Source: a virus | DNA length: 64,000 nucleotides | Virus record (IMG/VR): IMGVR_UViG_2802429064_000003 | Strand: one strand, 5' to 3' | Part shown: positions 4,430 through 52,190 of the stretch, piece after piece | How positions within the stretch are numbered: the first letter of the stretch is position 1 | How the letters are laid out: each line of letters opens with the position of its first letter | Program-made: the position numbers and the translations under genes | Notes under the pieces: generated by a model | Databases searched by the model: none | The model's input: the letters and a program-made list of their open reading frames with translations, nothing else | What the model was told of the DNA's origin: nothing

Positions 4430-4446
4430 TTCTCCATTTTAGAGAA
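4430..4446. promoter_or_regulatory. Operator/promoter palindrome, variant TTCTCCATTTTAGAGAA
   Basis: A 17-bp inverted repeat of the TTCTCTA-N3-TAGAGAA family, 19 nt upstream of the ATG at 4466. Confidence 0.55.
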
Positions 4447-4465
4447 CTTGGAATAGGTGGTAGTC

Positions 4466-4774
4466 ATGTTCAGAACGGCAGCTTTTCGCCGCATGGCGTT
4501 GGCGGGAGCGTTGACGACGGGTGTCGGCGGTACCGCTACAACCCTTGTGCCTGGCATGAATCACTGGCCGACCGCGTCGGTGGCCGTTGTTGTCGCCGTG
4601 GTCACTGCTGTCGGCGGCATCGTGAGAAAGCTCCTGCACGTCGCCCTGATCGCCATCATCGTGACCGGGACCTTGCTCGTCGTCGACACCGTGACGGGCG
4701 GGAACATTCAGCGCGATCTCAACCTCACCTCGCTGCTGAGTCTGGGGTCCGAACCACGCAGCGAGAAGGGCTGA
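4466..4774 (+). CDS. Small integral membrane protein
   Basis: AGGTGG RBS 5 nt upstream. Highly hydrophobic sequence with multiple predicted TM segments (LAGALTTGVGGTATTLVPG, VAVVVAVVTAVGGIV, IAIIVTGTLLVV). Confidence 0.55.
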   Translation: MFRTAAFRRMALAGALTTGVGGTATTLVPGMNHWPTASVAVVVAVVTAVGGIVRKLLHVALIAIIVTGTLLVVDTVTGGNIQRDLNLTSLLSLGSEPRSEKG

Positions 4775-4779
4775 GGAAC

Positions 4780-4890
4780 ATGGACTTCAACACACCGTTG
4801 CAGAGCTTGCATGGCTGGCCTGCGGCAGCGGTGCTCATCGCCATCGTCGTGGCGATCGCTGCTGTTTTGATTGCCGGGATATGCCAGTGA
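4780..4890 (+). CDS. Putative 36-aa membrane peptide (MDFNTPLQSLHGWPAAAVLIAIVVAIAAVLIAGICQ)
   Basis: GAGGAA RBS. One hydrophobic helix. Overlaps the start of the next gene. Too short to appear in the ORF track. Confidence 0.35.
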   Translation: MDFNTPLQSLHGWPAAAVLIAIVVAIAAVLIAGICQ

Positions 4891-5225
4891 CCCGCCGCCT
4901 GGTCCCCCGCATCGTGGCGGCATCGCTGATTTTCGGTGGCGTGGCTGGGTCAGTGGTGGGGTGCAGTACGGACACCCTGCTTCCCGGGTTCGAGAGCCCT
5001 GCTACACCAACGACGAGGCCGATTCCGGTCCCGGCGCCAGAGACGAAAACCCCCAATGTCGATGGCGGGTTCAGCACCTACTGGATGCTTCTTCCTGGTG
5101 GCAAGGAGAAGGTGCTGTGTTACGAGCACGCCTATGACGGCGACCCCCGCTACAACCATGTGAACGGCGTTGCTGCCGACTGTGATTGGAACGATAAGCA
5201 GCCGGTCGCTGGTGGTGACAGGTGA
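4881..5225 (+). CDS. Putative secreted lipoprotein
   Basis: Signal peptide with the lipobox-like SVVGC|S, followed by a Pro/Thr-rich linker. Confidence 0.55.
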   Translation: MPVTRRLVPRIVAASLIFGGVAGSVVGCSTDTLLPGFESPATPTTRPIPVPAPETKTPNVDGGFSTYWMLLPGGKEKVLCYEHAYDGDPRYNHVNGVAADCDWNDKQPVAGGDR

Positions 5226-5281
5226 GCGTCCGCGTCCGGTCACGCCTCGTGCCTTTCATGGACGGCGCGGTGGCGGTTTCT

Positions 5282-5509: not shown

Positions 5510-5568
5510 CGGACCCGCAGTGGCCTTCGTCGCGTGGCCATAGTGTGCGAATCCACAGCGGACACAGC

Positions 5569-8049: not shown

Positions 8050-8054
8050 GTCCG

Positions 8055-10123: not shown

Positions 10124-10124
10124 G

Positions 10125-10964: not shown

Positions 10965-10976
10965 AGTCCTTTCAGT

Positions 10977-11318: not shown

Positions 11319-11429
11319 GGCTGCTCGAGTCCTTTCGATGTGATTGGCGATAACGAGGGGTCGACGGCGGGTAAGTATCAGCAGGTATCGGGCGGGTAGT
11401 GGGACACAGGTGCAGGCTGTCGCTGCTGT

Positions 11430-12062
11430 TTACGTCAGCCGTCCAGCGCGGCGAAGAACATCGCCTGCTGCTTCGACGAGGTCCCATCCCGCGCGGTCTC
11501 CGTTGTTGCGGTCGGGATGCGAGTTGCCCCGTGCTGCGCGATAGGCCTTGTCGAGCGCTGAATCCTGATCACCAGCTGCCAGGCGGATGATCTGCTCTGC
11601 GTCATCAGCGGTCGCAACCACGCCGGACTGTCCCGCTGACGGAAGCTGTTTCCACCCGGTGTACTGCTCGCTTCCCGGGGTGATCCCGTATCGGTCGAGA
11701 CGACGCAATCCGTTGAGTCCGAGCGTGATGGCACGCAAATTGTCCTGCCACGTATTGAATTTCGCCGCGGGGTACGACAGCGGGCCGACGCGGGATTCGA
11801 CATGCAAGATCACGCCAGGGTGCTGCACCCGCGCATCGGCTCGTGGCAGGCCGTCAAGCCGGAAATCGCGCTCTCGGAGGGCGACCTCGAGTACGGACGG
11901 GGCGTTCGAGCCGTCCGATCCGAGGAACGATAACTCACGGTCGAGCTCTTCGAGTGTCGTCCGCAGTGGCGCCGAGAAAGGGGAGCGGATGTGCAGGCTT
12001 GGAAACGTTCCAGGCCAATTCTCTAAGGGGCGCAGTTTCATTCGATCGGGATAGTAGCTCAT
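11430..12062 (-). CDS. DnaJ (J-domain) containing protein
   Basis: C-terminal J domain with HPD (KAYRAARGNSHPDRNNGDRAGWDLV). ATG at 12062 in an ATGA overlap with the upstream gene. Confidence 0.6.
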   Translation of the reverse strand: MSYYPDRMKLRPLENWPGTFPSLHIRSPFSAPLRTTLEELDRELSFLGSDGSNAPSVLEVALRERDFRLDGLPRADARVQHPGVILHVESRVGPLSYPAAKFNTWQDNLRAITLGLNGLRRLDRYGITPGSEQYTGWKQLPSAGQSGVVATADDAEQIIRLAAGDQDSALDKAYRAARGNSHPDRNNGDRAGWDLVEAAGDVLRRAGRLT

Positions 12063-12901
12063 GCTATGGCAGCCTCTCGCATGTTGGTGGCGCATTCATT
12101 GGCGGCCTCGGCTCGGCGCTTGATCTCAGCTTCGATGAGTGGCATGAGGTCGCGTGCGACCGAGACGCTGAGTGTTAAGGAGCTCGAATACTGACGGGTC
12201 GAGTACAGAGCGGCAAGTATCTCCGCATCAAGTGTGGTGATGGCGCTGTTGTTTTCGCGGATCTGAGCAGCTACGAACAGCAGCAACTGTTGGTCGATCT
12301 TGAGTTTCACCGCCTTCCGCGGGTCCCGTTGTGCGGGTGTGTCGACCGTGCCAACGAAGGCACCTGGGGTGGGTCGAAAATCGGCGAGCGCCCACAATCC
12401 TTCGTCGTCAGGTGTAGCCGCGTACTCAGCGTTTTCGCCAGTACCGGTGCAACGCCTGCGAGTGTCCCCGTAGCGCAGCGCCTTGTCGGTGCCGCAGATA
12501 TGCTTCGCGGTATTCGAATAGCGAGTGATCATCACCATGTGAATGACGGTCTCGGTATCCAACGCCCACAACGCCCCATGATCCGGCGCTTCGCTCCAGT
12601 AGCTCAGTCCAAGTGCGGCGCAGGCAGCGATGTTCTCGCGGATGCGGGTAGGCACGGCTTTCACCGTGGGTGTGGTCCTGGGGCGAATCCAGAGACCGAA
12701 TCCCTTACGGGACTTTCCACGACCTTTGCGCCAGGTCAGATCTGAGCTCTGTGCGATGACCGCCGAGTATGGTTCTTGGGGGTCACGCTCGATCGACGGG
12801 TAGAACCGGGTCGGGCTTCCCGCGAATCTTGCGGAGACGCTGTCAGCGACAGCCTGAGCTGCCGGTGTCAACGGCCCGAGGCGAGGGGTGAATGCTGGCA
12901 T
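12059..12901 (-). CDS. Hypothetical protein (start moved to the ATG at 12901, downstream of the operator palindrome)
   Basis: The annotated longer ORF would read through the 17-bp palindrome. AAGGG RBS 6 nt before the ATG at 12901. Confidence 0.5.
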   Translation of the reverse strand: MPAFTPRLGPLTPAAQAVADSVSARFAGSPTRFYPSIERDPQEPYSAVIAQSSDLTWRKGRGKSRKGFGLWIRPRTTPTVKAVPTRIRENIAACAALGLSYWSEAPDHGALWALDTETVIHMVMITRYSNTAKHICGTDKALRYGDTRRRCTGTGENAEYAATPDDEGLWALADFRPTPGAFVGTVDTPAQRDPRKAVKLKIDQQLLLFVAAQIRENNSAITTLDAEILAALYSTRQYSSSLTLSVSVARDLMPLIEAEIKRRAEAANECATNMREAAIA

Positions 12902-12917: not shown

Positions 12918-12934
12918 TTCTCTAAAACAGAGAA
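12918..12934. promoter_or_regulatory. Operator/promoter palindrome TTCTCTAAAACAGAGAA
   Basis: A 17-bp inverted repeat 17 nt upstream of the leftward gene start at 12901. The flank forms a TATGAA -10-like hexamer on the coding strand. Confidence 0.6.
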
Positions 12935-12956: not shown

Positions 12957-13910
12957 CTATCGAGCGGCGGCATTGTCGGAAACTGCTGCCGAGTCCCTCG
13001 CGCGCTCTTCTGCGCGCTGCAGCAGGCGCCAGATTCGGCCGGCGTAGGCGTCCTTGGTGATCGGTGGATCGGCGTTGGCTGCAAGCTCGCTCATTCTGGC
13101 TTCCGGGTTCTCCAGGCGTAGTCGCGCCGCCTCTGCCAGCTGTGGTGGCACGTCATCGCCGAGGATTCGGAGCGCACGCCCCACTGATTCGGCTTGGTCG
13201 TGTGCCGCCTGGATGAACCTGGATCTGTTGGCAGCCTCGAGGTTCTCGACGCGCAGCGATTCGCGGTGCGTGCTCATGAGGGTGTGCGCAGCTTCGGGTG
13301 CTCCCACGGCTATGAGGAATCTACCTATCTCCGGGGTTTTGCGAATCTCGAATACATCGACAGATGCTCCGTCGCGGGTGTATTCGCGCATCTGAGTCTG
13401 TACTCCGTGGCGGCGGGCGAACCCACCGAGTGCCATCGCCGCTGGGGCAGTCGGGCACACAACCTCGAGGCGCGGTCGGCGCAGCTCGTGGGTGATGATC
13501 TGTCCGCGTGCCAAGAACGCACCGCGAAGTGCGGCTGCCGCGTCAGCGCGTGTGCCGGCGACCACCGTCGGCGCCATCCCTACCACCGGTCGACCCGACG
13601 GGCTGAGCAGGCCCACCTGCACCGCTAGGTTGTGGGCGCGATGTATCTGGCGCACCTTGAAGGTTCCCGCCGAGAGCTCGAACGCGCGCGGCGCCGCATC
13701 GAAGAGCTTGGTGATCTCGTTGCGCAAGAACACCGCGGCTTCGCGCGTATCGAGCTCGACGTCGATCCAGCAGCGGCGGCCCTCACTGAAAAACCCGCCG
13801 CCGAAGCGCAGCATCGCTGAGACCTGCGCACGTCTGGTCGAAGGCTTGTCGTGGACGGACGGAAGTACACGATTCAGTTCGTATTTGACCTGTTGCGTCA
13901 GTGGATTCAC
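12957..13910 (-). CDS. WhiA-like DNA-binding protein (degenerate LAGLIDADG scaffold plus C-terminal HTH), paralog 1
   Basis: N-terminus VKYELNRV...RAQVSAMLRFGGG and C-terminal DPPITKDAYAGRIWRLLQRAEE match WhiA signature regions. Confidence 0.6.
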   Translation of the reverse strand: MNPLTQQVKYELNRVLPSVHDKPSTRRAQVSAMLRFGGGFFSEGRRCWIDVELDTREAAVFLRNEITKLFDAAPRAFELSAGTFKVRQIHRAHNLAVQVGLLSPSGRPVVGMAPTVVAGTRADAAAALRGAFLARGQIITHELRRPRLEVVCPTAPAAMALGGFARRHGVQTQMREYTRDGASVDVFEIRKTPEIGRFLIAVGAPEAAHTLMSTHRESLRVENLEAANRSRFIQAAHDQAESVGRALRILGDDVPPQLAEAARLRLENPEARMSELAANADPPITKDAYAGRIWRLLQRAEERARDSAAVSDNAAAR

Positions 13911-15809: not shown

Positions 15810-16805
15810 TTACGCACCTGTCAGGAGTCGGACGGCCCCACCGTCGGGGCGCTCTGAATCGAACTCGTCCTGCTCTTCTCCGGCGGCGCGGCGGTCGGCC
15901 ATGATGAGCAACCGCCGCAACCGGCCTGCGACAGCGTCTTTGGTGATGGGCGGCTGGGCGAGCTGCCCAAGCTCTTCCAGAGATGCCTCGCGGTGATCCA
16001 GGCGAAGCTGTCCGGTGTGCGCCAGGTGCTCGGGTGCTTCTGCCCCCAAAATCGCTAGTGCCTGCTTCACCTTGGCCGCCGTGGCTGCCGCTGCTCGTGC
16101 TGATCTACGCGCGTTGGCGTCATCGAGGTTGACCAGCCGGATTGCGGTCGACTGCATTGCGCGCTGAGCGATTCGCCGCTCCCAGGAGATGCGCGACTCG
16201 TCTGCACCGATTCGGGTCAAGAGCGTTCCGATGCTGTCATGGTCGTGAATCACGACACGGTCGATGCCACGAGCGGTGCGCACCATCGACTGAACACCCA
16301 GCCGGCGCGCGCAGCTGGTCAGCGCGAATGCCACTTCGGGGTTGGGGCAGCTGATCTCCAGCGCGCTGGATCGGCTCGGTCCGATCAATGATCCAGCGAC
16401 CATGAAGGCGCCGCGCCAGGCTGCGGCGACCTCGCCCGGTGATCCGCCGACCACCATCGCGGGTAGCCCGGTGACGGGCCGGCCGCGCAGGTCGATGAGA
16501 CCAGTCTGTAGGGCGAGATCACGCCCACCTTCGCTCACGCGCACCGTGTAACGGGCACCACGGCGCAATCCGGTTTCGCTGTTCACGATCACTACTGCTT
16601 TGTGGCCATACAGTGCGGCGATTTCCCGGCGCAGGTACCGCGCGACGGCACCGGTGCCGACCTCGATGTGCACCGTCAGCCCGGTACGGGAGACACGAAG
16701 CTCACCAGCGAGTCGGACGATAGCTGCGACCTGAACACGCCTGCACCCCTGGTGTATTGATGTGGCGCGACTCAACTCGTCACGCACTTCCTGCGTCATC
16801 GACAT
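15810..16805 (-). CDS. WhiA-like DNA-binding protein, paralog 2
   Basis: MTQEVRDELSR...VAAIVRLAGE at the N-terminus. C-terminal LGQLAQPPITKDAVAGRLRRLLIMADRR closely matches the WhiA C-terminal HTH signature. Confidence 0.6.
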   Translation of the reverse strand: MSMTQEVRDELSRATSIHQGCRRVQVAAIVRLAGELRVSRTGLTVHIEVGTGAVARYLRREIAALYGHKAVVIVNSETGLRRGARYTVRVSEGGRDLALQTGLIDLRGRPVTGLPAMVVGGSPGEVAAAWRGAFMVAGSLIGPSRSSALEISCPNPEVAFALTSCARRLGVQSMVRTARGIDRVVIHDHDSIGTLLTRIGADESRISWERRIAQRAMQSTAIRLVNLDDANARRSARAAAATAAKVKQALAILGAEAPEHLAHTGQLRLDHREASLEELGQLAQPPITKDAVAGRLRRLLIMADRRAAGEEQDEFDSERPDGGAVRLLTGA

Positions 16806-16837
16806 CGGTCCTCCTCCTGCGTTTCGTGGTCGGTCTG

Positions 16838-18811
16838 TCAAGCTGCGGTTTCAACGGCGCCGGGGCGCTGGAAGGCCGGGAGCCACTTCTCGGCTTGGGC
16901 GAGTGCGATCAGGTCGCTGAGGTCACGGCGGTCGAGCTGGCCGGCGTCGGGGACTCCCAATTGCGACGCGAAGTCGATCTGCGCATCGGAGGACTTTGCG
17001 CGGGGGAGATCACGCATGTGATCGGGAAAGATATTCTGCGCCAGCGCGTCTGCCTCTGCCAGGCTCAGCCCTTGCAGGTAGCACCGGGGACCCGGTTCGG
17101 TCCACTGCCCATCGAGGCCGACCCAGAACATGCGGTGCACCGTGCTGTCGAAGAATCCGAAGGCCCAATCACGGCCCGCGACGGTCCCCGCGACACCACG
17201 CATATCGGCGAGCATCAGTACGCCTTTGTGGCCGTTGGCGCGGTACACCGAGCGCACGAGGCCCCGAGGGTGGTGTACCCAGCGGATGGTGGAGGTGCGC
17301 TGCGACCAGCTGGAGTCGCCTCGCCGCTGTTTTCCGGCGGCTAGGACGTCGCCGGTAACCGGATCGAAAGTCCGCAGCGGATCTACCCGGTGCAGGTCGC
17401 ATTCACAACCGCAACGGCACAGTCCGAAGGTCAGCGTGCATGTGCATGTGCAGGGGACACTGGACACGGGGTCGCTGGCTGGGCCTGACTCAGACGACTC
17501 GTTCGCACACGTGCAGTTGCATTCACAACCTATTCCGGTGCAGGAGAAGTCGCACTCGTCACTTGTGCAGGGCTGCTGGCAGAAGCAACCGAACCCGTCT
17601 TCGTCGCTCTCCGGTTTCTCGCGGTGTTCGGGGTCCAGGCGGGTCTTGACGATCAGCCCGAGGGATCCGGCGCCCACGAGGTCCACGACGAGAGCGGTGT
17701 CTTTGACGGTTCCGTCTTCGAAGGTGTGTGGCCGCAGTGCGCGCCCTACACATTGGACAAGCCTGGACTGGCTGCGCGTCGGTCTGGCCAGCACGACCGC
17801 TTCGCAGCGAGGGAAGTCTGCTCCCTCGGTGAGCACGTCGACCGTCACCAGCACCTGGGTGCTCCCGTGTCGGAATCGGTTGTAAATGCCGTTACGGACG
17901 CGGGTTTTGGTCTCTCCGACGACCACTTCGGCGGACACGCCTTGTTCGACAAGGGACTTGGCTAGTTGCTCGCAGTGCAACAACGAAGCGCCAAAGACGA
18001 TGGATGAGCGGCCCTCGGTGCGTGTCAACACCGCCTCGACAGTGGCGTTTAGCGTGGTCTCTCGCATCATCGCCTCTTCGGCGACCTCGTCGGAGATGTC
18101 TCCGCCACTACCGGAGGACAGCTTCGAGACATCAAGTTCCGGGAGTTCAACGGTCACGCCTTCTGGCGCGATCAAGAAGCCGTTTTCGATGGCCCAGTTG
18201 ATGTCCCGCTCGAAAACCACTTCTTCCCAGATGGTCCTCAAGGCGGGCTCGTCCCTGCTCGGGGCGTGGCGGATCATCGTCGCGGTGAATCCGGCGCGGC
18301 GCGCGCCCAGAGCAGTGAAGTGGTCGAGCACCTTGCGGTAGGTTCGGGCGGGCGCGTGGTGGGCCTCGTCGACGATGACGAGGTCGCGGTGTCCGATTCT
18401 GGTTAGGGCCGCCTCAGTCTGTAGTGATTGCACTGTGGCCGAGACAATCTGAGCAGTTGGGTCATCGCGATTGCCTCCTCCGATCAGCGAGGGGACGGGG
18501 CCGGCCGGGTTCACCGCTGAGACGGCAATGGCCATCTGCTTGATCAGTTCGTCGCGGTGGGCCATCAGCAGCACCCGGCCGCTGTTGGTCACCTCACGGC
18601 GCGCCAGCTCTGCGATGACGGTCGATTTTCCCGTCCCGGTCGGCAGCACGACCGCCGGTCCCACGACGCCACGGTTGTAGGCAGCGCATACCGCGTCGGC
18701 GGCTTCGATCTGATACTCGCGCAGTGGGCGTGGCTCGTTGGTTGCAGGGGCTGCGACAGGGAAAGCCATCTGCTCTTGATCTGCGGCGGGAGCCAAGTCG
18801 GTGACTGTCAT
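16838..18811 (-). CDS. Superfamily-2 DEAD/DEAH-type DNA helicase (ResIII-like) with a Cys-rich central segment
   Basis: Walker A VLPTGTGKST, motif II VIVDEAHHAP, a helicase C-terminal domain, then CFCQQPCTSDECDFSCTGIGCECNCTC. Confidence 0.75.
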   Translation of the reverse strand: MTVTDLAPAADQEQMAFPVAAPATNEPRPLREYQIEAADAVCAAYNRGVVGPAVVLPTGTGKSTVIAELARREVTNSGRVLLMAHRDELIKQMAIAVSAVNPAGPVPSLIGGGNRDDPTAQIVSATVQSLQTEAALTRIGHRDLVIVDEAHHAPARTYRKVLDHFTALGARRAGFTATMIRHAPSRDEPALRTIWEEVVFERDINWAIENGFLIAPEGVTVELPELDVSKLSSGSGGDISDEVAEEAMMRETTLNATVEAVLTRTEGRSSIVFGASLLHCEQLAKSLVEQGVSAEVVVGETKTRVRNGIYNRFRHGSTQVLVTVDVLTEGADFPRCEAVVLARPTRSQSRLVQCVGRALRPHTFEDGTVKDTALVVDLVGAGSLGLIVKTRLDPEHREKPESDEDGFGCFCQQPCTSDECDFSCTGIGCECNCTCANESSESGPASDPVSSVPCTCTCTLTFGLCRCGCECDLHRVDPLRTFDPVTGDVLAAGKQRRGDSSWSQRTSTIRWVHHPRGLVRSVYRANGHKGVLMLADMRGVAGTVAGRDWAFGFFDSTVHRMFWVGLDGQWTEPGPRCYLQGLSLAEADALAQNIFPDHMRDLPRAKSSDAQIDFASQLGVPDAGQLDRRDLSDLIALAQAEKWLPAFQRPGAVETAA

Positions 18812-22096: not shown

Positions 22097-22099
22097 CCG

Positions 22100-23067
22100 G
22101 AGGAGGTGAATCGAATTTGCGAATCATCCACGTTTCCATCACCGGCAATTGCCGTCGTCTCGGTGAGCGTAATGCCGGTTGTGATGCCTACGCAACACCT
22201 GTTCTATTTCTGCGTGTCGTTGTACGCCTGGGGTCTGACAAGTGGGCGCCATCCAGCTCTCAACCTGGGGAAATGTGTGGGGAAGTCGGTGGGGAGTGAA
22301 TGGGCGGCGCGTGGCTAGTTGCCGGTTGTTGCCTGTCACGTCCCCAGGGCATTGCGCGAAAGTAAGTTTCGGCAGATTGGTCGACGGGTTCCCGTCAAAC
22401 TCGCACCAGGCCTCCAACTATGTCTGGCTGCCCGGCATCGACTCACGGCCCGCCCGCCAGCCCCGGCTCTCCGCGGTTGGCGTGAATCTGTTCGTCGTGG
22501 TGTGTAACTTTCCCTGTTGACCTGCGGTTTCTGTCAACAGGGCGTGTACTTGTTGGCCTACCTGCGTGTTTGTGTTGATGCCTTGTAAGTGGGGGGTGCC
22601 TCGGAGACCCCCTCGGCGTGCACATATACACACGCGTTCTGACCGGCTTTGCCTCACGTAACGGGTAAAACAAATAATTAGCTAAACTAATTACATATAT
22701 CTACCTGGGGTTTCTTTATAGACCTACCGTGTGGGCAATTTTATGAAGCCAGAGCCGCGCCGAGGCACCCCCCACCTACAAGGCATCTCCGTAAAACCGC
22801 TGGTAGGCCGAGAAGTGCACGCCTTGTTGACCATTTACGCAGGTCAACGCGGCGAGAAACCGTGCACACCGAACGATTCGCACCACGAAAAAGTGTGCAC
22901 ATCGCAGAGGCGGAAATGTGCAGCAGTGGCGAGCGGCGGCCGGTGTCGGCGAGATCAGCAGTGGCGATATTTCGATGTAGAGATCAGGCGAATGGGCAAT
23001 ATGCCTATTTCGATGCCACCTATCGGCGTGTCGGCAACTAGATGGCAATGATGTCGGCATCGGATGC
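22100..23067. promoter_or_regulatory. Large divergent non-coding control region with several inverted repeats flanking a 100-bp AT-rich core: candidate early promoters, replication origin or site-specific recombination site
   Basis: No convincing ORFs. IR CCCTGTTGAC/GTCAACAGGG (22512-22542) contains TTGACC. A 24-bp IR (22581-22604 versus 22760-22783, one mismatch) brackets the AT-rich core at 22650-22740. Further IRs at TTGACC...GGTCAA and GTGCACAC...GTGTGCAC. Confidence 0.5.
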
Positions 23068-25863
23068 TTGACTGGCCGCGTGTCCGATGAGCCCAACGTG
23101 CCAGTGGTCGATCTGCCGCGTGTCAACGCGGTCGAGTTCCAGTTCTATGACCACACGGTCGGGGCGCATCTAGTTACCGCTGACAAACAGATGGCGAGGT
23201 GGATCGACGAGCTTCGGTCGGCGCCGCCAGCCGCGGTGGCCGTCGATATCGAGACCCATGGTCTTGACGTCAACAAGTTCACCATCACGTGTGTCACCGT
23301 GGCCTTCGAACTCGGTCAAGACATGGTGGCGCTGTTGTTCGATCCTCTGCGCCGTGCTGAACACCGCGGGATGCTGGCGCGGGTCTTCGACCACGCGGAC
23401 CGCCTGGTCTTCCACGGCGCCAGCTTCGACATCGCTCCGCTGTACGCCCACAGGCTCATGACGAAGGCGCATATTCGCAAGCTCGGCGACACGCTGGTCG
23501 CCGCGCGGATGGTGGGGACCAATGCCAAGGCCGGCCGCACACTCGAAGACCTCGCGAACGTGTTCCGCGTGATGGACGACGATCGCACGTCGATGACCGA
23601 AGTGTTCTCCGCTCGAGGACTTAAGAAGGACGACGGTTGGCGGGGAACTGATATCGACACTCCGACCTATGTAGTGGGTGCGTTGTCCGACACCGTCGCG
23701 ACAAAGCGCCTTTGGGGTGTCCCCGGCGTTAACGGACACGGCATCATGGCCAAGGCCGCTCGCTACCTGACGGCCCCGTCAGCGGGTTTCGGCGGCCATG
23801 GTGTTCTCACAGCCACTGACGCTGAAGCACTCGTCGAGGACATCCAGCGCGTCAACGCGATAGTGCTGGAGCGGACGGCACGCGGATACGCGGTCGACAA
23901 AGAGTTCCCCCAGCGTTTCCTTGAAGAGACTGCTGAGCAGACGCGGGCTGCCGCAACGACTCTCGCTGAGGCGGGAATCCGCCCGGGCAATGCCGCTGAC
24001 CTGGTCAACACCCTCGATGCCCGCGGTCTGCTGCACCAGCAATGGCCGCGTACCGACACAGGCCGCCTGAAAGCCGATAAGAAGGCCTTGGAGGTCTTCA
24101 CCGGTGAGCACATCAGTGACGCGCTGAAGAACCCGCTGGTGATGGCGCACCGTGCTGTTTTCGACAACGAGAAGGACCGCGGCTATGTCGAGAAGGTGGT
24201 CGAAAATGCAGGCCCCACAGGGCGCCTACATCCAGAAATCAAGATTTTGGGCGCCAGCGCCACCGGCCGCATGTGCCTGCCCGAGAATCAGCGGCTGCTG
24301 ACCCGCCGGGGCATCGTGTCTGTGAACGAGATCCGGACCGGCGATCGAACCCTGGATGCAGACGGGCGCTGGACGACGGTGCGGGCGGTGCACCGATACA
24401 GCGATGCGCCGCTTCGCCGTTACACACTCGATGATGGAATCGAACTGATTTGTACACCCGAGCACCGCTGGGTTACCGAGAACACGGCCGGTAAGCGCAA
24501 GGTTCAGCCTCTTGACCGTGCGCGGCAATCCGACCACCTACGGCTCACGCCGCCTATTACTCCCGGGGTCTGCGGAGGCGGGAACTCCATGACCGCTCCG
24601 CAGCACGCCGCGTACACCATCGGGCGTGTCACTGTTCAGCTTGCGCGACAACGCACCGGCGAGTTGTCCGATGCTCTGTGCGGTCCAGCCGAGACGCGGC
24701 GCGCGACGGTGACTAGCCTGCGTGAGCGCTGGCAGACCGAAGGTGAAACCTGCTGGGTACCCGAGCATGCGCCACGAGACACCGCGCTGCACTCGGTGTG
24801 CGACAAGTCTCTCGATGAGCTTTGGAACATGCTGGAGGGTGCGAGCCACTACGCCACAAACGTCAGTCACGCTGGTGTCACCGTGCTGCCCACACCCAAT
24901 AGACGCTACGCCGAGGCTTTCGCGCTGGCGGGATATCGTCTCGGTCTGCGATCCCTGATCTTTGACGCGCCTGCAGGGGCCGCCGTCGTGCTACATCGAG
25001 GGCGCTCCAGCCTGGCCAACATGGTTGTGAGTGATGCCGGAGAAGGCGATGTGTGGTGTGTGACAACTGATTCGGGCACATTCACCGCATGGGGCGAACA
25101 TGGCCCGTACCTGACGGGCAACAGTGCGAGCAAGCCGGAAATTCAACAGTTTCCCAAACTGGCACGTGGAGTCATCGTCGCTGATTCGGGTGCCGAGGGC
25201 TGGATTTCGGCGGACTGGAAATCGATCGAACCCGTGGTGCTGGCGACTGCGGCCGGAGACAGGCAGTTCATCTCCGACATGCGCGCCGGCATGGATCCGT
25301 ACGAGCCGGTGGGGCAAGCAGCCGGTATTGACCGCAAGCTTGCCAAGCGAAAGATGCTTGCGGACATGTACGGGCAGGGGCTCAAAGCCGCTTCGCTGCA
25401 ATATGGTTGGTCACTGGATCAAGCTCGGTTCGTTCAGAACACGATCCGCGGATCGCTGCCGATTCTGTACAAGCTGATCGACGCACTCAAGGCGCAGTCG
25501 CAACGATTCGGGCACGTGACCACGCTTACTGGCAGGGTGGTCGATCAGAAGTTCAGCTTCTACGAGGGCGGACGTCTGGTGAGCGATGTGGCACAACGCA
25601 TTGCGCCCAATCACTTCTGCCAAGGCTCGGCGCTGGACATCATGCACTACGCGATTCTCGAATTGGATCGCCGCGGGCTATCTGATCACGTCCACCTATG
25701 GATGCACGACGAGATCGTGGCGGACAAGGAGATCGCCGAGGAGTTGGCGGAAGTCATGGCCACGCCGCCCCCGTTCCTTGAAGCGGTGGCGCAGTACCAC
25801 GGTATCGAGGCGTTCTTGGCCGTTGACGTCAATGAGATGGGCAGCCGATGGGAGTACGTGTGA
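23068..25863 (+). CDS. polA: Family A DNA polymerase (Pol I-like, 3-prime to 5-prime exonuclease plus polymerase domains) interrupted by an intein
   Basis: Exo motifs VDIETHGL and [11 protein letters not shown]. Polymerase motif A region TGRM|C...N|[11 protein letters not shown] is split by a 283-aa insertion. Motif C region LWMHDEIV. Confidence 0.8.
24274..25122 (+). other. Intein (283 aa) inserted in polymerase motif A (TGR|intein|S..PxxQxxP)
   Basis: Starts with Cys in a block A-like [20 protein letters not shown]. Block B is ICTPEHRW. Ends ...[24 protein letters not shown] followed by +1 Ser. The penultimate residue is Gly rather than His, so splicing competence is uncertain. Confidence 0.65.
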
Positions 25864-26138
25864 GTAAAGAGAATTCGTACGCGCGGCTGCACGGGGCACT
25901 CGAACGCGGAGGACACCATGGGGCATCCGCGACCATGCCGACGCTGGCGGAGTTGGCCACCAACCACGTCGCGCATGGCGTCTTGGTCGGCACGAACTTC
26001 TTTGGGATCAACACCGCCCCCATTGCGCTCAACGAGTCCGACCACGTGCGTATGTGGGTACGGGCCGCGGCCAGGAACCGAGAGCGCACTGTCAGCGACA
26101 CGACGCATCACGAGCAGTGGATAGAGGAGACGTCATGA
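25857..26138 (+). CDS. Small hypothetical protein
   Basis: ORF overlapping the polymerase stop. Weak evidence. Confidence 0.3.
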
Positions 26139-33370: not shown

Positions 33371-33999
33371 CGACAACGATCGAATCAGATGGTGTGACGA
33401 GTCACCAGCGACGGATCAGCGGGCAAGGCCGAACGCAGCTGTTTGACACCGTCGAACGAGCGGCGACTACCGCGCTGGTCGTGGCTGCGCTCACATCAGC
33501 AGATCCGGTGCGGTCCCAAACCTCGCGCAGGGTGTACCCCTTGATCCATTCCGCAGGTGACGGCGCTGGCTCGCGGCGGCGTGCTGGGGCGTTGTCATCC
33601 CTGGTGGCTGACGTTCTGGCGGCGCAATCCGACGACACCGGCGCGGCGCCGGCACTGGCCCTCTCGATGGAAAGGTGGTTGTTGCACCCACATCCGAGCA
33701 CGGCAACTGAACTGACGCGCACAGTGCGCCAATTCGTCGAAGGCTTCGACTCCCCGGATGCCGCCACGCTGGAACTTGCGTGGGTGGCCGGCGCTGGCCT
33801 CGACGATGCCCTCGTCAAACTCCGCGAAAGAGGGTTGAACGGTGATGATGCACAACCACTGTTGAGCCTCATCGCTGCTGCCGTTGAGTTGACCGTGCCC
33901 ATGGTCTGGGTAGCCCGAACCCTCGGCGTGCCCCGGGACCAGATTTATCGCCGCACCCGCGGAATCGATCGCGAGGCCTGGCGTGCACTTTTGCCGTAG
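33367..33999 (+). CDS. Hypothetical protein (GTG start in a GTGA overlap with the protease stop)
   Basis: Coupled to the protease gene. The C-terminus is possibly HTH-like. Weak evidence. Confidence 0.4.
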   Translation: MTTTIESDGVTSHQRRISGQGRTQLFDTVERAATTALVVAALTSADPVRSQTSRRVYPLIHSAGDGAGSRRRAGALSSLVADVLAAQSDDTGAAPALALSMERWLLHPHPSTATELTRTVRQFVEGFDSPDAATLELAWVAGAGLDDALVKLRERGLNGDDAQPLLSLIAAAVELTVPMVWVARTLGVPRDQIYRRTRGIDREAWRALLP

Positions 34000-34061
34000 C
34001 AGCTCGGCGTGTCGCCCCATCACAGTTGGTCCTGGCGCGAAACCGTTGGACAGTGACGCCG

Positions 34062-34078
34062 TTCTCTAAAACAGAAAA
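34062..34078. promoter_or_regulatory. Operator/promoter palindrome, variant TTCTCTAAAACAGAAAA
   Basis: Located 22 nt upstream of the ATG at 34100. Confidence 0.55.
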
Positions 34079-46672: not shown

Positions 46673-47523
46673 TGAGCGGTATCGACTTCACAACCCGGGA
46701 CGGCAGCGCGTCCGTCCGAGGCGCCGAACGACCATATGGCGCTGCGCTGGCTGCGCGACTCACGGCGGCGATTCTGGAGCTCGACGGGCAGCGCACGCAG
46801 GAGCGCAATCGCCGCATCTTGCCGGACATCTTTTTCCGGCAGGCCGCCTTCAACGACCAAAGCGCTGGTTGCACTACATCATTGACCGACGCCTTCACCT
46901 ACTGGGCGCCGATGGCTGGGAAGATGTATGAGGAGGGGTCGGCGGACATTCGTATCGGAGATAAGACCGAGCGCCCCGATGGGTTCGTCATCAACACCGC
47001 GGTGGTTGCGGGCAGCGACCCGATCGCACTTCTGACCCGCATTCACGCCTACTCAGAGGAGGGGCTGCTGGTCGGGGGAATGGACCGATCCTGGCTCGCG
47101 GGAATCATTGACGACGGACTGCAGGCATACATCCTGCGCGACAAATCCGGGTGGGAGGGCGCCGCTGAACTGCTCCGGTCGGACAGTCGTAGCCCCGCGA
47201 TCATCACCACCAGTCAAGGCGTTTCCCTTTCGTGGTTGCAAGGCGCTGCGGCCGGCTTCTACGCCGACGGCCAAAGCGACCAAGAGCGTTGGGCCGCCGA
47301 AAAAGCCTTCGACGCCCTTTCAGGGGCAGAGCAGTGGGACTGCTCCATCAGCGCACTTCTGGAGGAGCGCCGGCCAGACGCGAGCTGGTGGCTCATGCTC
47401 GATCCGGAGACTTTTCATAAGCCGTCACATCTCGGGCTACTTACGGCCTTCGACGCGATCGAAGCCGACACTGCAGCCCAGAAGGCCGAGAAGGACCGGC
47501 GGGCTGAAGGAGTAGTGCAGTGA
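46669..47523 (+). CDS. Hypothetical protein
   Basis: ATGA-coupled ORF. Confidence 0.5.
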   Translation: MMSGIDFTTRDGSASVRGAERPYGAALAARLTAAILELDGQRTQERNRRILPDIFFRQAAFNDQSAGCTTSLTDAFTYWAPMAGKMYEEGSADIRIGDKTERPDGFVINTAVVAGSDPIALLTRIHAYSEEGLLVGGMDRSWLAGIIDDGLQAYILRDKSGWEGAAELLRSDSRSPAIITTSQGVSLSWLQGAAAGFYADGQSDQERWAAEKAFDALSGAEQWDCSISALLEERRPDASWWLMLDPETFHKPSHLGLLTAFDAIEADTAAQKAEKDRRAEGVVQ

Positions 47524-47762
47524 CCGATCGGCTGCCCGCGCGGTGGGATTCGCAGCCGTTGGCGACGGCGCTGGAGGTGATGGCCGCTTCTGGACCGGCA
47601 GAAGGCCGCTTGCGATTCGATTTCGGACAAGCCGGTTCGGTGGGACTGAGTCTGCACCTCAATCCGACCAAGCTCAGCCGAGGAGCCTCTGACGCACTTC
47701 TTGCTCAGATCGCGCAGCTGTCGCTTTTGGCGGCCAAGTCGACGCAGCAGGTCATCGGATAG
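47520..47762 (+). CDS. Small hypothetical protein
   Basis: Coupled ORF. Confidence 0.4.
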   Translation: MTDRLPARWDSQPLATALEVMAASGPAEGRLRFDFGQAGSVGLSLHLNPTKLSRGASDALLAQIAQLSLLAAKSTQQVIG

Positions 47763-47846
47763 CTCCGATGTGTACGCCCAACTGGTGCGCGCGGTGCTCA
47801 TCTCTCGATAGGTGATGACACGGGGTCGCGCCCTTCACCGTTGATA

Positions 47847-47863
47847 TTCTCTAAAATAGAGAA
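47847..47863. promoter_or_regulatory. Operator/promoter palindrome TTCTCTAAAATAGAGAA (perfect arms)
   Basis: Immediately followed by the -10-like TATAGT. 14 nt to the ATG at 47877. Confidence 0.65.
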
Positions 47864-47876
47864 TATAGTGGGACGT

Positions 47877-48590
47877 ATGGGTACTGCTGTCGTCACTCAC
47901 CAGGGGCGCCGATTCACGGTGGAAACCTATGTCGACCCCTACCCGGGCAAGGCGGCGACAGATCGCATCTGCTGGACCGAGACATGTGGCCGGTGCGGCG
48001 GTAGCGGAATCTTCACCTGGTGGACCAGCACCGGCCAGGCGGGTGGAACCTGCTTCGGCTGCGACGGAGCCGGACGCGTGTCGCGCAGTCGTGCTGTGTC
48101 GATGTTCCGTCGCGATGCACGCCTGGAGGCGCTGTTCCGTGAGCACGGACAGCAGCTGGCCGACGAAGCAGCGGCGGCTGCACAGGCGGCTGAAACCGCG
48201 AGACGTGCCGCCGAATTCGACTGGGCGTGGGAAGCAGCGCATGCCGAGCAGGAGCGTCGCGCCGTCCTGAACAACACTCCGGCTGGAACAGAAGGGGAGC
48301 GTCTGCGCGATCTGGAGGCCTCGGTGACCGTCTCGGCTGGCTTCGAACGCACCGGTTACACCGGCCATACCGAGTACGTGAAGATCGTTGTGTTAACGCT
48401 GGAGACCGGTCAGGTACTCATGTGCAAGGGAACTGCCAGCTGCCTGTACGACGTAGGTCGCGGCGATCGTGTGAAGATCACCGGAACAGTGTGCGGAACC
48501 GGCATGTACCGAGGCCAGCTACAGACCGTATTGCAGCGGCCGAAGATCACGGTGATTGAGCGCGCCGACGCGGGAGATGCGAGCCGTTGA
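47877..48590 (+). CDS. Hypothetical protein with a DnaJ-type CxxCxGxG zinc-finger-like segment
   Basis: Start moved to the ATG downstream of the operator. CWTETCGRCGGSGIF...CFGCDGAGRV. Confidence 0.5.
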   Translation: MGTAVVTHQGRRFTVETYVDPYPGKAATDRICWTETCGRCGGSGIFTWWTSTGQAGGTCFGCDGAGRVSRSRAVSMFRRDARLEALFREHGQQLADEAAAAAQAAETARRAAEFDWAWEAAHAEQERRAVLNNTPAGTEGERLRDLEASVTVSAGFERTGYTGHTEYVKIVVLTLETGQVLMCKGTASCLYDVGRGDRVKITGTVCGTGMYRGQLQTVLQRPKITVIERADAGDASR

Positions 48591-49159
48591 AAGGAAATCC
48601 TGAAGACGCTGTGATCGCCGAGATCAACGCGTTGGAAGCCGACGATTTGATCGACAGTCAGCTAGCCGCGGGCGAGACTAGGCCGGGGCGTGTACCGGCA
48701 TGCCGATGTGGTGCGCCCTGGCATGGCCTGCCCCGCGGCGGCTGCCCTGGAAGCCACGTGGCAGGGGAACTCGAACTATCGGAGGAACGCGCCGGAGAGA
48801 TCTACATTGACGAGCACTACGAGTTGCGCGCGAGTCACGGCCCGATGCAGGTCATTCCGAGCACCTTTGCGTCGGGCCCACCCGTGGACGATCCTGAGTC
48901 AGCTATGCGCCGATTCATTGATGACGTGCACCGAATGGCCGAGGAGATGGCTAGCCGCGCCGGCGCGTCGGATCCGATGGTGATCATCAGTGGGTACGGC
49001 TCTCCGATGGATCAGCTCTTGGCTGTGGGTGGTGATCATGCGTCGCGCTTTCGCCTACCTCCGCGGCAGGGCCTGACGATGGATGGGGCGAGAACAGAAG
49101 AGCGCCGCCGGTCATGGCAGCAGCGATTGCGCCGGTTGTTTCGTTCTGGATCGGGCTAG
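48587..49159 (+). CDS. Hypothetical protein
   Basis: Coupled ORF. Confidence 0.45.
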   Translation: MKGNPEDAVIAEINALEADDLIDSQLAAGETRPGRVPACRCGAPWHGLPRGGCPGSHVAGELELSEERAGEIYIDEHYELRASHGPMQVIPSTFASGPPVDDPESAMRRFIDDVHRMAEEMASRAGASDPMVIISGYGSPMDQLLAVGGDHASRFRLPPRQGLTMDGARTEERRRSWQQRLRRLFRSGSG

Positions 49160-49236
49160 TCGGTCTGCCGCGGCGATCCGCCACGCCGAAGGTCGATGAC
49201 GCGCAATTCGCCACGGTTCCGTGTTGAGCTTGATTC

Positions 49237-50034
49237 ATGGACATCGCACCGGGTCGACGCGCCGACGTACACATGTGGGTGACTAGCCATCAATACGGCA
49301 GCGGCACTGCGCGTATTCAGACATTCCGCGATCGGGAAGGGCGCGACATCGCGTTGATCACGCTCCGCGATGGGGACGTCGATCCGGGCCCCCACTTGGC
49401 AGCCGTGGAGTACCAGAGATGCGCTTGGCACGACTTCTTCCCTGAGTCGCCTCGGCCACCGATCCTGATCTTCAACCTGTTGGGTTCGAAGGCCGCGTTC
49501 GATGCGGAACGGGAAGTAATCATCACTGAGTTCGACACTGACGGAAGGTATCTGGGCCTCACCGATATTTCCCAGCATGACCTCATCGTGCTGAATCAGC
49601 TCGGAGCCGAATGGGATGAAGGCACTGGCTTTGTTCCGTTGCAATATCCGCCAGTCGCGCACTTGGAGGTTCTTCGGCAGGTTGCTGTGTGTGAACTCCC
49701 GGAGGGCGATCTGTTCCGCGATATGAACGAGTTTATGACCGTTGACTGGGCCGCTGCAGTGTCCGTGGCTGTGGAGTGCCTGTCGTCCGGATCGAAATTC
49801 CCGCCCGACCTTCCGACACATGTTCCGCGCGACCTCGCGAAAGCCGCACAGTCGTTTTGGCGCAAGCCCATCCGACTCATTGTCGAGCCGGGTGAGCCGC
49901 CACGCTTTGGCAACGGACAGCACAGGGCTGAAGCTCTGCGTCGACAGAACGCCACGGTCGCGATCATGCTGGACACACGGCTGGTCGACTCCGAACCACT
50001 TTCCGGCGAGATCAGGATCGCCAACGAGCTTTAA
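49237..50034 (+). CDS. Hypothetical protein, possibly ParB/Srx-like (GNGQHR)
   Basis: A single motif, FGNGQHRAEALRR, resembles the ParB N-terminal nuclease domain. Weak evidence. Confidence 0.45.
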   Translation: MDIAPGRRADVHMWVTSHQYGSGTARIQTFRDREGRDIALITLRDGDVDPGPHLAAVEYQRCAWHDFFPESPRPPILIFNLLGSKAAFDAEREVIITEFDTDGRYLGLTDISQHDLIVLNQLGAEWDEGTGFVPLQYPPVAHLEVLRQVAVCELPEGDLFRDMNEFMTVDWAAAVSVAVECLSSGSKFPPDLPTHVPRDLAKAAQSFWRKPIRLIVEPGEPPRFGNGQHRAEALRRQNATVAIMLDTRLVDSEPLSGEIRIANEL

Positions 50035-50061
50035 CTCGAGGACATGACGTCGCTCCCAGGG

Positions 50062-51894
50062 TCAGTACCCCGCGTACTTTTCGGTTTGCGCGTACGCGCG
50101 TAGCGGTCGCGATACACCGGTCGAGCGGCGAACCAGCAGCATCTTTCCAGAACCGTCCCAGCCCGATGGCGGAAGCTGAACCGCATCATCGCCCATGAGC
50201 ATTACCGCGTCGTCGTGGGTTGGCTTGGAGGTCAGCAGCACCGTCGAGCACAAGTCGAGCCACCGAGGCGGGAATCTCTCCTCGTTATCCAGTGTCAGGG
50301 TGATCAGCACCAGGTGGAGACCCAGTTTGCGGCCAGTGGACAGCAGTTCTGTAACTAGGGTGTGTAGCTCTTCGCGTTGTGCCGCATCGAAGTAAGCCCA
50401 CAGTGCGTCGTCAAGCGCCAAGAGCTCGGGCTTGTGGAGTTTCGGACTGGCACGGCGCATCTCTATCTCTGCGTGAATTCCCCTGATTTGGTCGAGAACC
50501 GCGTCCGGATCTTTCCGCGAATTTAGGTGTCTGGCACCCCACCGGTTAGTGGCTAGCGCGTCCCGCACCAACCCTCGCACCAACATCGATTTACCGCGGC
50601 CTGCGCCGCCGAATACCAGCAAGTGGCCATCCATAGCGGGGGTGTAGGGGACTGGCTCACCGGTGGCGTCCAGACCGAGTGGAAACGCCGCCCACGAGGT
50701 CAGTGTCGTCGACACCGTCGGCAGCGGATGTGGTGATGGTGCGGGGAGCCGTTCCATCTCGCGCGCCAGCTGGGCTGCGGCGATGAACTGGGCGTTGTTG
50801 GTGGTGGTTTCAAACGATTTCAGCTGTCGGTTGGGCAATGTCACGGTGCGATCGGGGTTCAATGACACGTCGCCGCGACTGAGCGCACCAAGGACTATCG
50901 TGCTGGCCGCTGACAGCGCCGTGTGGAGTTGGTCGAACAAGGCACTGAGGGACATGACACCGCCGGCGTCTGCGACGATCGCGGCGACATCGGCACTTTC
51001 ATCGGGCCAGTAGTCATTGAGTGGGTCCGCATCGTTCGCCTGCACCTGTGGCTTCGTCGATTGCGGCGGCCACAGTTTCAGTATCGGCTCGCCCCAATGG
51101 CTCCCTGCCAGTGTCTCGATCATGCTTCTTGTCTTCGAAGTGTCGGTCGATGCATGCGGTTTCGGTTCCCGAATATCGATTTTCGTCTGTGCGAAGGGGC
51201 TCGGGTCAGTGATCCAGAACCGCAACATTTCGCGCAACCGGCGTGCTTCAGGCTCGCCAGCAGTGTCCAGCCATCGGATCAACGCAGGTAGCGAGTTCAT
51301 TCCTCGCGGGATGCGGAAGTCCTCTGCGAGGATCTTGTCTAGGAACATGGCCTCGGCTGAGGTCGGCTCCCAACCGAACATGGGAAGCAGCTGGGCCAGC
51401 ATGCAAGCCCGGGCGTCGCCTGGTTTCAGTTCAGCCAGCGGGTCGACGTGGCGTACATCTACGCGGTTCACAGAACCGCCCGTGTGCAGTACCTCAGGAA
51501 GCGGTTTCCACGTCCCTTGAACGGAGACTTGTCCGTCTGCCACGACCACGCCAAGAACGTCGCCGCCCTGGTCGAGAATCAGGTCGCCCGGGCGGACGTC
51601 ATTGAGTGCCACCGGTGGCCAGGATGAGTCAGAATTCGAAGGACGCCCGTCGTCGGGGTTGAGAGCGGGGGCCGATCGCTCGGCTGCTTGCGTGAACTCG
51701 TCCAGTACGAGCCGGACGGGGCCATCACCGTCGGTGTCGTTTGGCAGGAACCGCAACGGCTTGGCACCGAGCACGCTTTCCGGAGCATCGATAACGGCAC
51801 GAGCGAAAACACGGGCGTTGTGCAGCGTGAAATCCAGCCGAGCACGCATGAGCGCCTTGGCCAACATTTCGGTGCGATTGGTGGCAGATGCCAT
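50062..51894 (-). CDS. FtsK/SpoIIIE/TraB-like P-loop ATPase (C-terminal), with a large N-terminal domain of unknown function
   Basis: AAGGGAGG RBS before the ATG at 51894. Walker A FGGAGRGKSMLV and Walker B LHLVLITLTLDNEE. Confidence 0.6.
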   Translation of the reverse strand: MASATNRTEMLAKALMRARLDFTLHNARVFARAVIDAPESVLGAKPLRFLPNDTDGDGPVRLVLDEFTQAAERSAPALNPDDGRPSNSDSSWPPVALNDVRPGDLILDQGGDVLGVVVADGQVSVQGTWKPLPEVLHTGGSVNRVDVRHVDPLAELKPGDARACMLAQLLPMFGWEPTSAEAMFLDKILAEDFRIPRGMNSLPALIRWLDTAGEPEARRLREMLRFWITDPSPFAQTKIDIREPKPHASTDTSKTRSMIETLAGSHWGEPILKLWPPQSTKPQVQANDADPLNDYWPDESADVAAIVADAGGVMSLSALFDQLHTALSAASTIVLGALSRGDVSLNPDRTVTLPNRQLKSFETTTNNAQFIAAAQLAREMERLPAPSPHPLPTVSTTLTSWAAFPLGLDATGEPVPYTPAMDGHLLVFGGAGRGKSMLVRGLVRDALATNRWGARHLNSRKDPDAVLDQIRGIHAEIEMRRASPKLHKPELLALDDALWAYFDAAQREELHTLVTELLSTGRKLGLHLVLITLTLDNEERFPPRWLDLCSTVLLTSKPTHDDAVMLMGDDAVQLPPSGWDGSGKMLLVRRSTGVSRPLRAYAQTEKYAGY

Positions 51895-52173
51895 GAGAGG
51901 AGACCTCCCTTTCCGTCGAGCGGTGCGTCCCCGGCCCGCGCCCGCCACGAAAAGGGGAGAGCTGCGTAGAACGCGACCTTCACGAGGTTCTTCGGCCCTT
52001 GCGGAGTCTCGTCAGCCGCCGCCGGGGAGCGGAGCTGGTCGAGAGTCCAGGCGCGGGAGCAGTTCTGGCCCCGTTGCGAAGGTACTTCCAAATTGCGATC
52101 GGACCTAATCGGATGAACTGACGACTCTCGGCGTGTCGCGAGCCGCTGGACGGCTTGTCACCCCAACCATCTA

Positions 52174-52190
52174 TTCTCTAAAATAGAGAA
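52174..52190. promoter_or_regulatory. Operator/promoter palindrome TTCTCTAAAATAGAGAA (perfect arms)
   Basis: Located 16 nt upstream of the ATG at 52207, with an AAAGGCGGGG RBS between. Confidence 0.65.

Follow-up and report, generated by a model that had tools for sequence, protein, structure and literature searches.

A promoter-associated 17-bp palindrome in an integrated element of Mycobacteroides abscessus and its candidate Xre-family repressors

The element and its palindromic sites

The window analysed here, the whole 64,000-nucleotide stretch filed in IMG/VR as virus record IMGVR_UViG_2802429064_000003, belongs to a large integrated element found in Mycobacteroides abscessus, in which a 17-bp palindrome recurs shortly ahead of genes. 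The window encodes two WhiA paralogs, three helicases (two with HA domains), a family-A DNA polymerase (PolA), several DEDD exonucleases, an RNase H, two FtsK-like ATPases, an SLT transglycosylase, an SPFH protein, an excisionase-type protein of the HTH_17 family and a tyrosine integrase (60949-62157). To the left of the window, the island continues with RyR, PRTase, Macro, an FtsK-like gene, GmrSD, LppX, a 1425-aa EccC-like gene and EccB. An exact protein look-up placed the sequence in many assemblies named Mycobacteroides abscessus, and one element protein is indexed, sequence-identical, in 90 blocks of the assembly collection; since two of the carrying contigs exceed 0.5 Mb, the element lies in a large replicon, most likely the chromosome. 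It is integrated and probably conjugative. An earlier note on this DNA had framed it as an actinophage, which is at odds with the presence of EccB/EccC, FtsK-like ATPases, PolA and helicases. No phage structural genes were found in the window, and phage or plasmid identity was rejected after a megablast search of 40000-60000 against phage and plasmid collections returned no match. Some small window proteins do match phage families of unknown function. The GC content of the window was measured as about 62%, rather than the 65% previously given for the genome.

When TTCTCTANNNTAGAGAA was searched for with up to two mismatches in the 64-kb window and in shuffled sequence, exactly six matches were obtained in the window, at 4430, 12918, 34062, 41646, 47847 and 52174, compared with a mean of 0.02 in the shuffles, none of which reached six. 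The six positions reported earlier are thereby confirmed, and a search of the window allowing three mismatches added no further site. The sites, to which no strand is assigned, are as follows:

4430-4446, site 1, TTCTCCATTTTAGAGAA; 19 nt upstream of ATG 4466 of a small membrane-protein gene (4466-4774)
12918-12934, site 2, TTCTCTAAAACAGAGAA; 16 nt ahead of ATG 12901 (- strand) of the DUF7457 gene (12059-12901)
34062-34078, site 3, TTCTCTAAAACAGAAAA; 21 nt to ATG 34100 of the HA-domain protein/helicase/exonuclease operon
41646-41662, site 4, TTCTCTAAAACAGAGAA; 57 nt to GTG 41720 of the SPFH gene (41720-42655)
47847-47863, site 5, TTCTCTAAAATAGAGAA; 13 nt to ATG 47877 of a zinc-ribbon-like gene (47877-48590)
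52174-52190, site 6, TTCTCTAAAATAGAGAA; 16 nt to ATG 52207 of a conserved 60-aa/78-aa gene pair

The sites have the form TTCTCTA-N3-TAGAGAA, with the core TCTC-N7-GAGA and the consensus TTCTCTAAAAYAGAGAA. The TCTC/GAGA arms are unvarying in 59 of 59 unique sites, and the 7-N3-7 dyad symmetry and the size suit a helix-turn-helix (HTH) dimer. The centre is asymmetric (AAAAY) and lies on the + strand in five copies and on the - strand in the copy at 4430. Accordingly, the consensus first proposed describes most copies but not that at 4430 (TTCTCCATTTTAGAGAA on the + strand), which matches it only on the - strand and with one mismatch; the copy at 34062 (TTCTCTAAAACAGAAAA) carries two mismatches. 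All six sites are intergenic. Intergenic DNA makes up 13.3% of the window by our own codon-usage gene calls, which were checked against public gene calls on identical DNA, and the probability that all six would land there is about 5e-6. The sites do stand just before start codons, as had been described, although the distance needs correction from 14-57 to 13-57 nt. The site at 12918 lies in a 55-nt gap after the stop codon of a WhiA-like gene (12957-13910, -) and serves the - strand gene 12059-12901 and no + strand gene. Two sites lie in divergent regions: at site 4 the SPFH gene faces away from an FtsK/AAA gene (39382-41382, -), and the operon of site 6 is divergent from the FtsK-like gene 50062-51894 (-).

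Relatives of the element were found by following two of its proteins, the DUF7457 protein and the FtsK-like product of 50062-51894, to their homologs. These related islands (loci are given L numbers) show 50-95% protein identity and include one from another species, Mycobacterium sp. D16Q14. Sites 1, 2, 4, 5 and 6 recur at orthologous places in all relatives that cover them, diverged ones at 50-90% protein identity included, with arms intact or nearly so and flanks diverged, and no ortholog of the site at 34062 was obtained among the relatives. Orthologs of site 1 occur in L213 (17959) and L211 (14104), where the flanking sequence differs, and those of site 2 stand before the DUF7457 gene in L211 (9961), L212 (9482) and L213 (8856), at 54-90% protein identity. 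In L218, L219 and L220, site 4 retains the palindrome, the -35 TTG and the TACGNT -10, and site 6 retains the palindrome and (T)TGTCA. Orthologous sites also agree in the direction of the central A/T run. On the gene strand this run is T-rich at sites 1-2 but A-rich at sites 4-6, so that the motif has no set direction with respect to the gene. The prophage prophi79-1, rejected as a lead, encodes a distant DUF7457 homolog and contains no palindrome.

An exact-match scan over one genome per species, the counts from which are lower bounds, extended the distribution further. Among the matches listed are at least nine loci in high-GC Mycobacteriales/Actinomycetota, from Mycolicibacterium canariasense (three), M. 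frederiksbergense, Mycobacterium sp. D16Q14, two Tsukamurella, Nocardia and an actinobacterial metagenome-assembled genome. Only about 3e-5 chance matches are expected per 6-Mb genome (67% GC, from base composition), and thus these matches are not due to chance. The palindrome is also present on two high-GC viral contigs. Most of these loci have few genes in common with the window; M. canariasense is a partial exception, in that the same NAMPT-Nudix pair adjoins the palindrome.

The relation of the sites to promoters was examined in four scans of the 64-kb window with a sigma-70-like consensus. Only six matches were found, fewer than in shuffles (about 13 expected), and half of them are promoters at palindromes; indeed, the three best matches each cover a palindrome and are directed at the downstream gene:

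41641-41668, TTGACT-16-TACGAT; palindrome 4 is the spacer; TACGNT and TTG kept in orthologs
47841-47869, TTGATA-17-TATAGT; palindrome 5 is the spacer
52155-52184, TTGTCA-18-TAAAAT; the -10 (52179-52184) is the centre of palindrome 6

At site 5, TAnnGT is followed by exactly 7 nt and then ATG/GTG in all four orthologs (the window, L218, L219 and L220), and these orthologs have no conserved Shine-Dalgarno sequence (47864-47879 and L218-L220). As the start codon 7 nt after the -10 is kept, the mRNA of gene 47877-48590 is probably leaderless. At sites 1-3, -10-like hexamers overlap the motif. It had been proposed that the right half-site abuts -10 hexamers; this is borne out for TACGAT (41663) and TATAGT (47864), both kept in orthologs, but not for TATGAA at 12918, which is not kept. 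Nor does the motif hold a fixed position relative to the -10, since at 52174 the palindrome centre is itself the -10. Counted from the inferred start sites, the palindrome centre falls between about -9 and -22, and no single promoter architecture that we tried (-10 downstream, -10 central, TATTCT at the left edge) suits all six sites. Because the register varies while the arms are invariant, the motif is best seen as a protein-binding site laid over probable promoters and not as a promoter element.

Xre-family candidate repressors and alternative readings

With a probability of roughly 70%, the palindrome is the operator for a repressor of the Xre/HTH_31 family that the element itself encodes. 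An operator set of a dimeric HTH repressor, as suggested in the earlier note, is still the best reading of sites that are dyad-symmetric, lie on probable promoters and are common to otherwise unrelated operons. In both Tsukamurella loci (L043 and L109), the start of an HTH_31/HTH_3 gene lies some 95 nt away from the palindrome, and in M. canariasense two palindromes flank a tandem pair of Xre genes, with a degenerate copy, GTCTCTGTATTGGAGAA, 18 nt before the first gene. A profile built from four Tsukamurella and M. canariasense Xre proteins retrieved 191 relatives, among them P0074 (FSKG01000014.1, M. abscessus) and P0087 (MAEX01000011.1, D16Q14) on contigs carrying islands; P0075 (M. abscessus) was read from other contigs with the same EccC-EccB-Xre block. 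The order at the Xre loci is EccC-EccB, then divergently xreA, NT5C, five small genes and finally xreB. A palindrome variant, TTCTCCGTTTTAGAGAA, stands about 30 nt upstream of xreA, another, TTCTCCACATTAGAGAA, stands 22 nt upstream of xreB, and a perfect palindrome precedes the next operon. The pattern of palindromes before the xre genes is equal in D16Q14, and a candidate operator stands before an Xre gene in M. canariasense too.

The two genes were placed relative to the window through L228, which is joined to it by two 100% identical overlaps: in window coordinates, xreA lies at about -12.1 kb and xreB at about -15.6 kb, beyond the NAMPT-Macro-FtsK-LppX-EccC-EccB block and to the left of window position 1. 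No Xre gene of this subfamily was found inside the window. The regulon suggested by the earlier note is thus retained, but its single repressor may be a pair, given two Xre paralogs outside the window. An invariant segment, VLSRIERGERPCRV, which covers the recognition helix, is common to XreA, XreB and the Xre proteins of M. canariasense. The association also holds in metagenome loci picked by the protein profile alone: where at least 100 nt upstream was required (n = 8), a palindrome with up to three mismatches lies 70-90 nt before the start of the protein match in seven loci, the background of the pattern in high-GC DNA being about 0.35 per 50 kb. One metagenome contig (L237) carries four palindromes, one of them perfect, and a related island of Tsukamurella tyrosinosolvens carries four copies of the variant CTCTCTAWWWWAGAGAG, one of which lies between eccB and an HTH gene. 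The Xre family profile matches P22 C2, C.BclI/C.AhdI, ClgR and DdrO in the PDB; these are the closest relatives of known structure, and all of them are dimeric palindrome binders.

In the mechanism that we propose, an Xre dimer would occupy each palindrome. Because the palindromes cover promoter-like elements, binding would block RNA polymerase, which would be excluded by sites lying over the -35/-10 spacer (41646, 47847) or over the -10 (52174) of SigA-type promoters. At least six operons of the element would in this way stay silent during integration, with three or four further sites to the left of the window, and the weaker variants ahead of xreA and xreB would provide autoregulation. Since the two paralogs have one recognition helix in common, it is conceivable, though speculative, that XreA and XreB work at shared sites in the manner of cI and Cro. 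What the sequences show is the sites themselves, their conservation, their overlap with promoter-like hexamers and their co-occurrence with the Xre family; that a protein binds there, whether it represses, and what induces the system are inferences from these.

Several observations weigh against assigning the palindrome to an Xre repressor. The consensus scan gave no strict promoter match at 4430, 12918 or 34062. The candidate genes lie outside the window, and the link to them consists of 100% identical overlaps between assemblies from different samples. XreA and XreB share their recognition helix, so that either could bind or one could be an anti-repressor or an activator; some Xre-family proteins are transcription activators. 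Palindromes occur with no Xre gene in the few kilobases covered at the Nocardia locus, where the palindrome lies among metabolic genes, and in L186. Conversely, no palindrome was found near a more distant Xre homolog in Prescottella equi, which limits the link between Xre and palindrome to the close subfamily.

The alternative that fares best, though we consider it unlikely, is that the binder is a protein of the window itself: the HTH_17 protein, the product of open reading frame (ORF) 33367-33999 with its C-terminal HTH-like tail, or the WhiA paralogs (12957-13910 and 15810-16841), all candidates of the earlier note. The first of these is encoded as follows:

55601-55897, - strand, HTH_17/excisionase-family gene, candidate binder of the earlier note

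HTH_17 genes are kept in all related islands, and homologs occur in two unrelated palindrome loci, L097 and L186. However, the recognition helix reads RAHLYALIRS in the window and HWTVRRWITS in D16Q14 while the palindromes are alike, and near the gene there is a second motif (described below) and no palindrome; rather than binding the palindrome, the protein probably serves as an excisionase or regulates the second motif. No relatives of it were found in a scan of viral contigs. For WhiA, the conserved position of the pair beside site 2 is opposed by plasmids of M. avium and M. intracellulare that carry WhiA genes with no palindrome within 20 kb. Streptomyces WhiA sites have a GACAC core; the palindrome contains no GACAC, and it thus does not have the mark of a WhiA regulon. 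A Tsukamurella WhiA match that we followed as a lead proved to be the host whiA locus. ORF 33367-33999 has no family match and no homolog in other palindrome loci. Three further window products were rejected as regulators: the 60-aa and 78-aa proteins after site 6 are conserved and acidic with no match to a DNA-binding family, the Nudix protein 1632-2285, considered as an NrtR, matches in its Nudix domain alone, and ORF 32537-33370, which has a homolog near the L186 palindrome, is a secreted trypsin-like protease (GDSGAP).

Slightly less probable still is that the palindrome serves directly as a promoter element: with no dedicated protein, host SigA would read it as an AT-rich -10, either TAWWWT on both strands or a TATTCT at the left edge. 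Mycobacterial promoters require little beyond TANNNT, the centre TAAAAT fits this and is the -10 of the match at 52155-52184, and TA precedes many sites to give TATTCT. Nevertheless, a -10 hexamer leaves the invariance of the TCTC/GAGA arms (59/59 unique sites) unexplained, half of the sites have TAAAAC and so miss the key final T, and at 41646 and 47847 the conserved -35/-10 hexamers flank the palindrome instead of lying within it. The motif also travels with one Xre subfamily.

We regard as improbable a conserved, host-encoded regulator of Mycobacteriales that has been recruited by different mobile elements. The same 17-mer does occur in Mycobacteroides, Mycolicibacterium, Mycobacterium and Tsukamurella, in elements with few genes in common, but an element-encoded Xre of one subfamily lies beside the palindrome wherever the flanking DNA sufficed, and to our knowledge no mycobacterial regulator motif matches the palindrome.

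Very improbable, and narrowly the least probable of all, is action in RNA, whereby a 6-7 bp hairpin in the 5' leader would govern processing, stability or translation. The distance of 13-57 nt to start codons would fit a leader hairpin and perfect copies fold better than shuffles (z -2.5 to -3.9), but such folding is expected of any palindrome, and the copies at 34062 and 4430 fold no better than shuffles. Mismatches are uncompensated (in site 1 and the xreB operator, C at position 6 stands opposite A at position 12), and copies face either way with respect to their genes. The inferred transcription start lies downstream of the motif at 47847 and 41646, Rfam gave no match at gathering score anywhere in the window, and what is conserved is sequence and not pairing.

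A second motif and neighbouring features

A second motif, (CT)CGGCGTGTCG, which reads GACAC on the complement and has the fuller form CGGCGTGTCGCG at 52129-52140 (+), is likewise confined to intergenic DNA of the window (six of six exact 10-mers), and its positions are kept in L211 and L218-L220. It also occurs in L097, L103, L132 and L186. The copies are as follows:

52129-52140, + strand, second motif; 33 nt from its end to palindrome 6
34005-34016, + strand, second motif; 45 nt from its end to palindrome 3
4384-4395, + strand, variant of the second motif; 34 nt from its end to palindrome 1
23024-23035, + strand, second motif; before PolA
55505-55516, - strand, second motif; before the RNase H gene
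55943-55954, - strand, second motif; before the HTH_17 gene
2506-2517, - strand, second motif

Three copies begin 43-55 nt ahead of palindromes 1, 3 and 6 (start to start), and the others, among them those before PolA, the RNase H gene and the HTH_17 gene, often stand 39-47 nt ahead of a start codon that has no Shine-Dalgarno sequence. Its spacing is inconsistent with a promoter of the RecA-NDp/PafBC type or of the extracytoplasmic function (ECF) type. The HTH_17 protein and the WhiA paralogs are candidates for its binder. The small genes between the two WhiA genes, 12957-13910 (-) and 15810-16841 (-), match phage families whose function is unknown. The second WhiA paralog shares 57% identity with the chromosomal WhiA of Tsukamurella, and both paralogs are kept in related islands. 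The second motif occurs twice (at 22212 and 23026), along with a single weak promoter match, in a 983-bp gap with no convincing gene (22097-23079), between the leftward helicase/WhiA block and the rightward PolA operon; this gap may be a control or origin region.

At the left end of the window (10-2285) and in the DNA leftward of it (L221/L222 8194-12225; L211 16347-20386; L017 4040-7247), the island carries a block of NAMPT-type phosphoribosyltransferase, Nudix, Macro, PRTase and RyR genes, which recurs beside the palindrome-bearing elements of D16Q14 and M. canariasense. The block looks like NAD+ salvage/ADP-ribose cargo, possibly with a counter-defence function. At the other end, a tRNA 3'-end fragment, GGTCGCTGGTTCGAACCCAGCCGGGACCA, lies at 56188-56216 (+) inside a 937-bp non-coding stretch (55898-56834), and ARAGORN finds no complete tRNA there. 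The window is 100% identical to the related island L220 to the right of the fragment and divergent to its left. The fragment looks like an old attachment site, which suggests that the right 6 kb, where exonucleases and the integrase (60949-62157) are encoded, was accreted or forms a module of its own. Just past the PolA gene, a 96-aa ORF at 25848-26138 (+) matches the C-terminal part of the PPE domain (E 7e-16) and, to judge by this match, is a PPE fragment in a mobile element. In the viral contig IMGVR_UViG_2687453577_000001 (L186, 1300-1872), the palindrome lies at the degenerate end of an array of clustered regularly interspaced short palindromic repeats (CRISPR), beside an HTH_17 gene; the repeats of the array are type I-E-like, CTGCTCCCCGCGCAAGCGGGGATGAACC.

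Relation to known systems and implications

The proposed system resembles the cI/Cro-type Xre sets (P22 C2, lambda/434 cI-Cro and ICEBs1 ImmR) in its small element-encoded HTH_3/HTH_31 protein, in its several dyad-symmetric putative operators of about 17 bp, three of which overlap promoter matches of the consensus scan, with one before the repressor gene, and in the possibility of two proteins of equal specificity. There are also distinguishable differences. The operators here are spread over more than 65 kb and about ten promoters rather than over one immunity region, their sequence is another one, the carrier is an EccB/EccC-bearing integrated island and not a phage, neither an ImmA-like protease nor a RecA-cleavable domain was seen here, and binding is a prediction.

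Cluster A stoperators are asymmetric 13-bp sites inside transcribed regions, oriented with transcription, at which elongation is stopped; Cluster K start-associated sequences, also asymmetric, hold a fixed place on the ribosome-binding region. The palindrome is like both in being a short motif that is repeated in a mycobacterial mobile element and tied to expression control. The analogy with them drawn in the earlier note does not carry further: as a symmetric 17-bp site found intergenically in either orientation, at a variable distance of 13-57 nt and, at three sites, over promoter-like hexamers, the palindrome is neither a stoperator nor a start-associated sequence. It is not of the MerR type (19-20 bp spacer) either, since the spacers here are 16, 17 and 18 bp. 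The closest formal analogue in mycobacterial elements is the 17-bp repeat of Cluster O mycobacteriophages, 5'-TGTTCGGNNNCCGAACA, which is likewise built as 7-N3-7, occurs in more than 30 copies with unvarying arms and, as here, favours TTT/AAA in its central triplet and is of unproven function (PMC4351075). Many copies of that repeat are intergenic and many lie inside ORFs; they are not on predicted SigA promoters, and no cognate protein has been proposed (PMC4351075). Unlike it, the palindrome has other arms, and all copies in the window are intergenic and on probable promoters. The full motif had no match in the searchable literature, in which its 13-mers match only CRISPR guide scaffolds, and the term XRE is absent from a paper on integrative and conjugative elements of Mycobacteriaceae.

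This appears to be a repressor-operator switch of an ordinary kind, though an undescribed one, and it reveals no new regulatory principle. More tentatively, and with a low probability, the palindrome and two Xre paralogs of the same specificity may form a cI/Cro-like bistable switch of an undescribed family of EccB/EccC-bearing elements that crosses genera (Mycobacteroides, Mycolicibacterium, Mycobacterium and Tsukamurella), with a second tier acting via CGGCGTGTCG and possibly read by the WhiA paralogs or the HTH_17 protein. If this were true, one regulatory code would control transfer, replication and NAD-salvage/anti-defence cargo in an emerging pathogen.

Together, the sites and genes described here outline a concrete circuit, open to test, for a large mobile element common among M. 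abscessus, with about ten putative operators, two candidate repressors and the target operons; those to be silenced would encode helicases, nucleases, the SPFH protein, membrane proteins and small unknown genes. As the operator and the Xre subfamily are also found in other Mycobacteriales and in environmental metagenomes, one binding experiment would annotate the whole element family. Furthermore, a 17-bp site together with its repressor could serve as a tight, orthogonal regulatory part for mycobacterial genetics.

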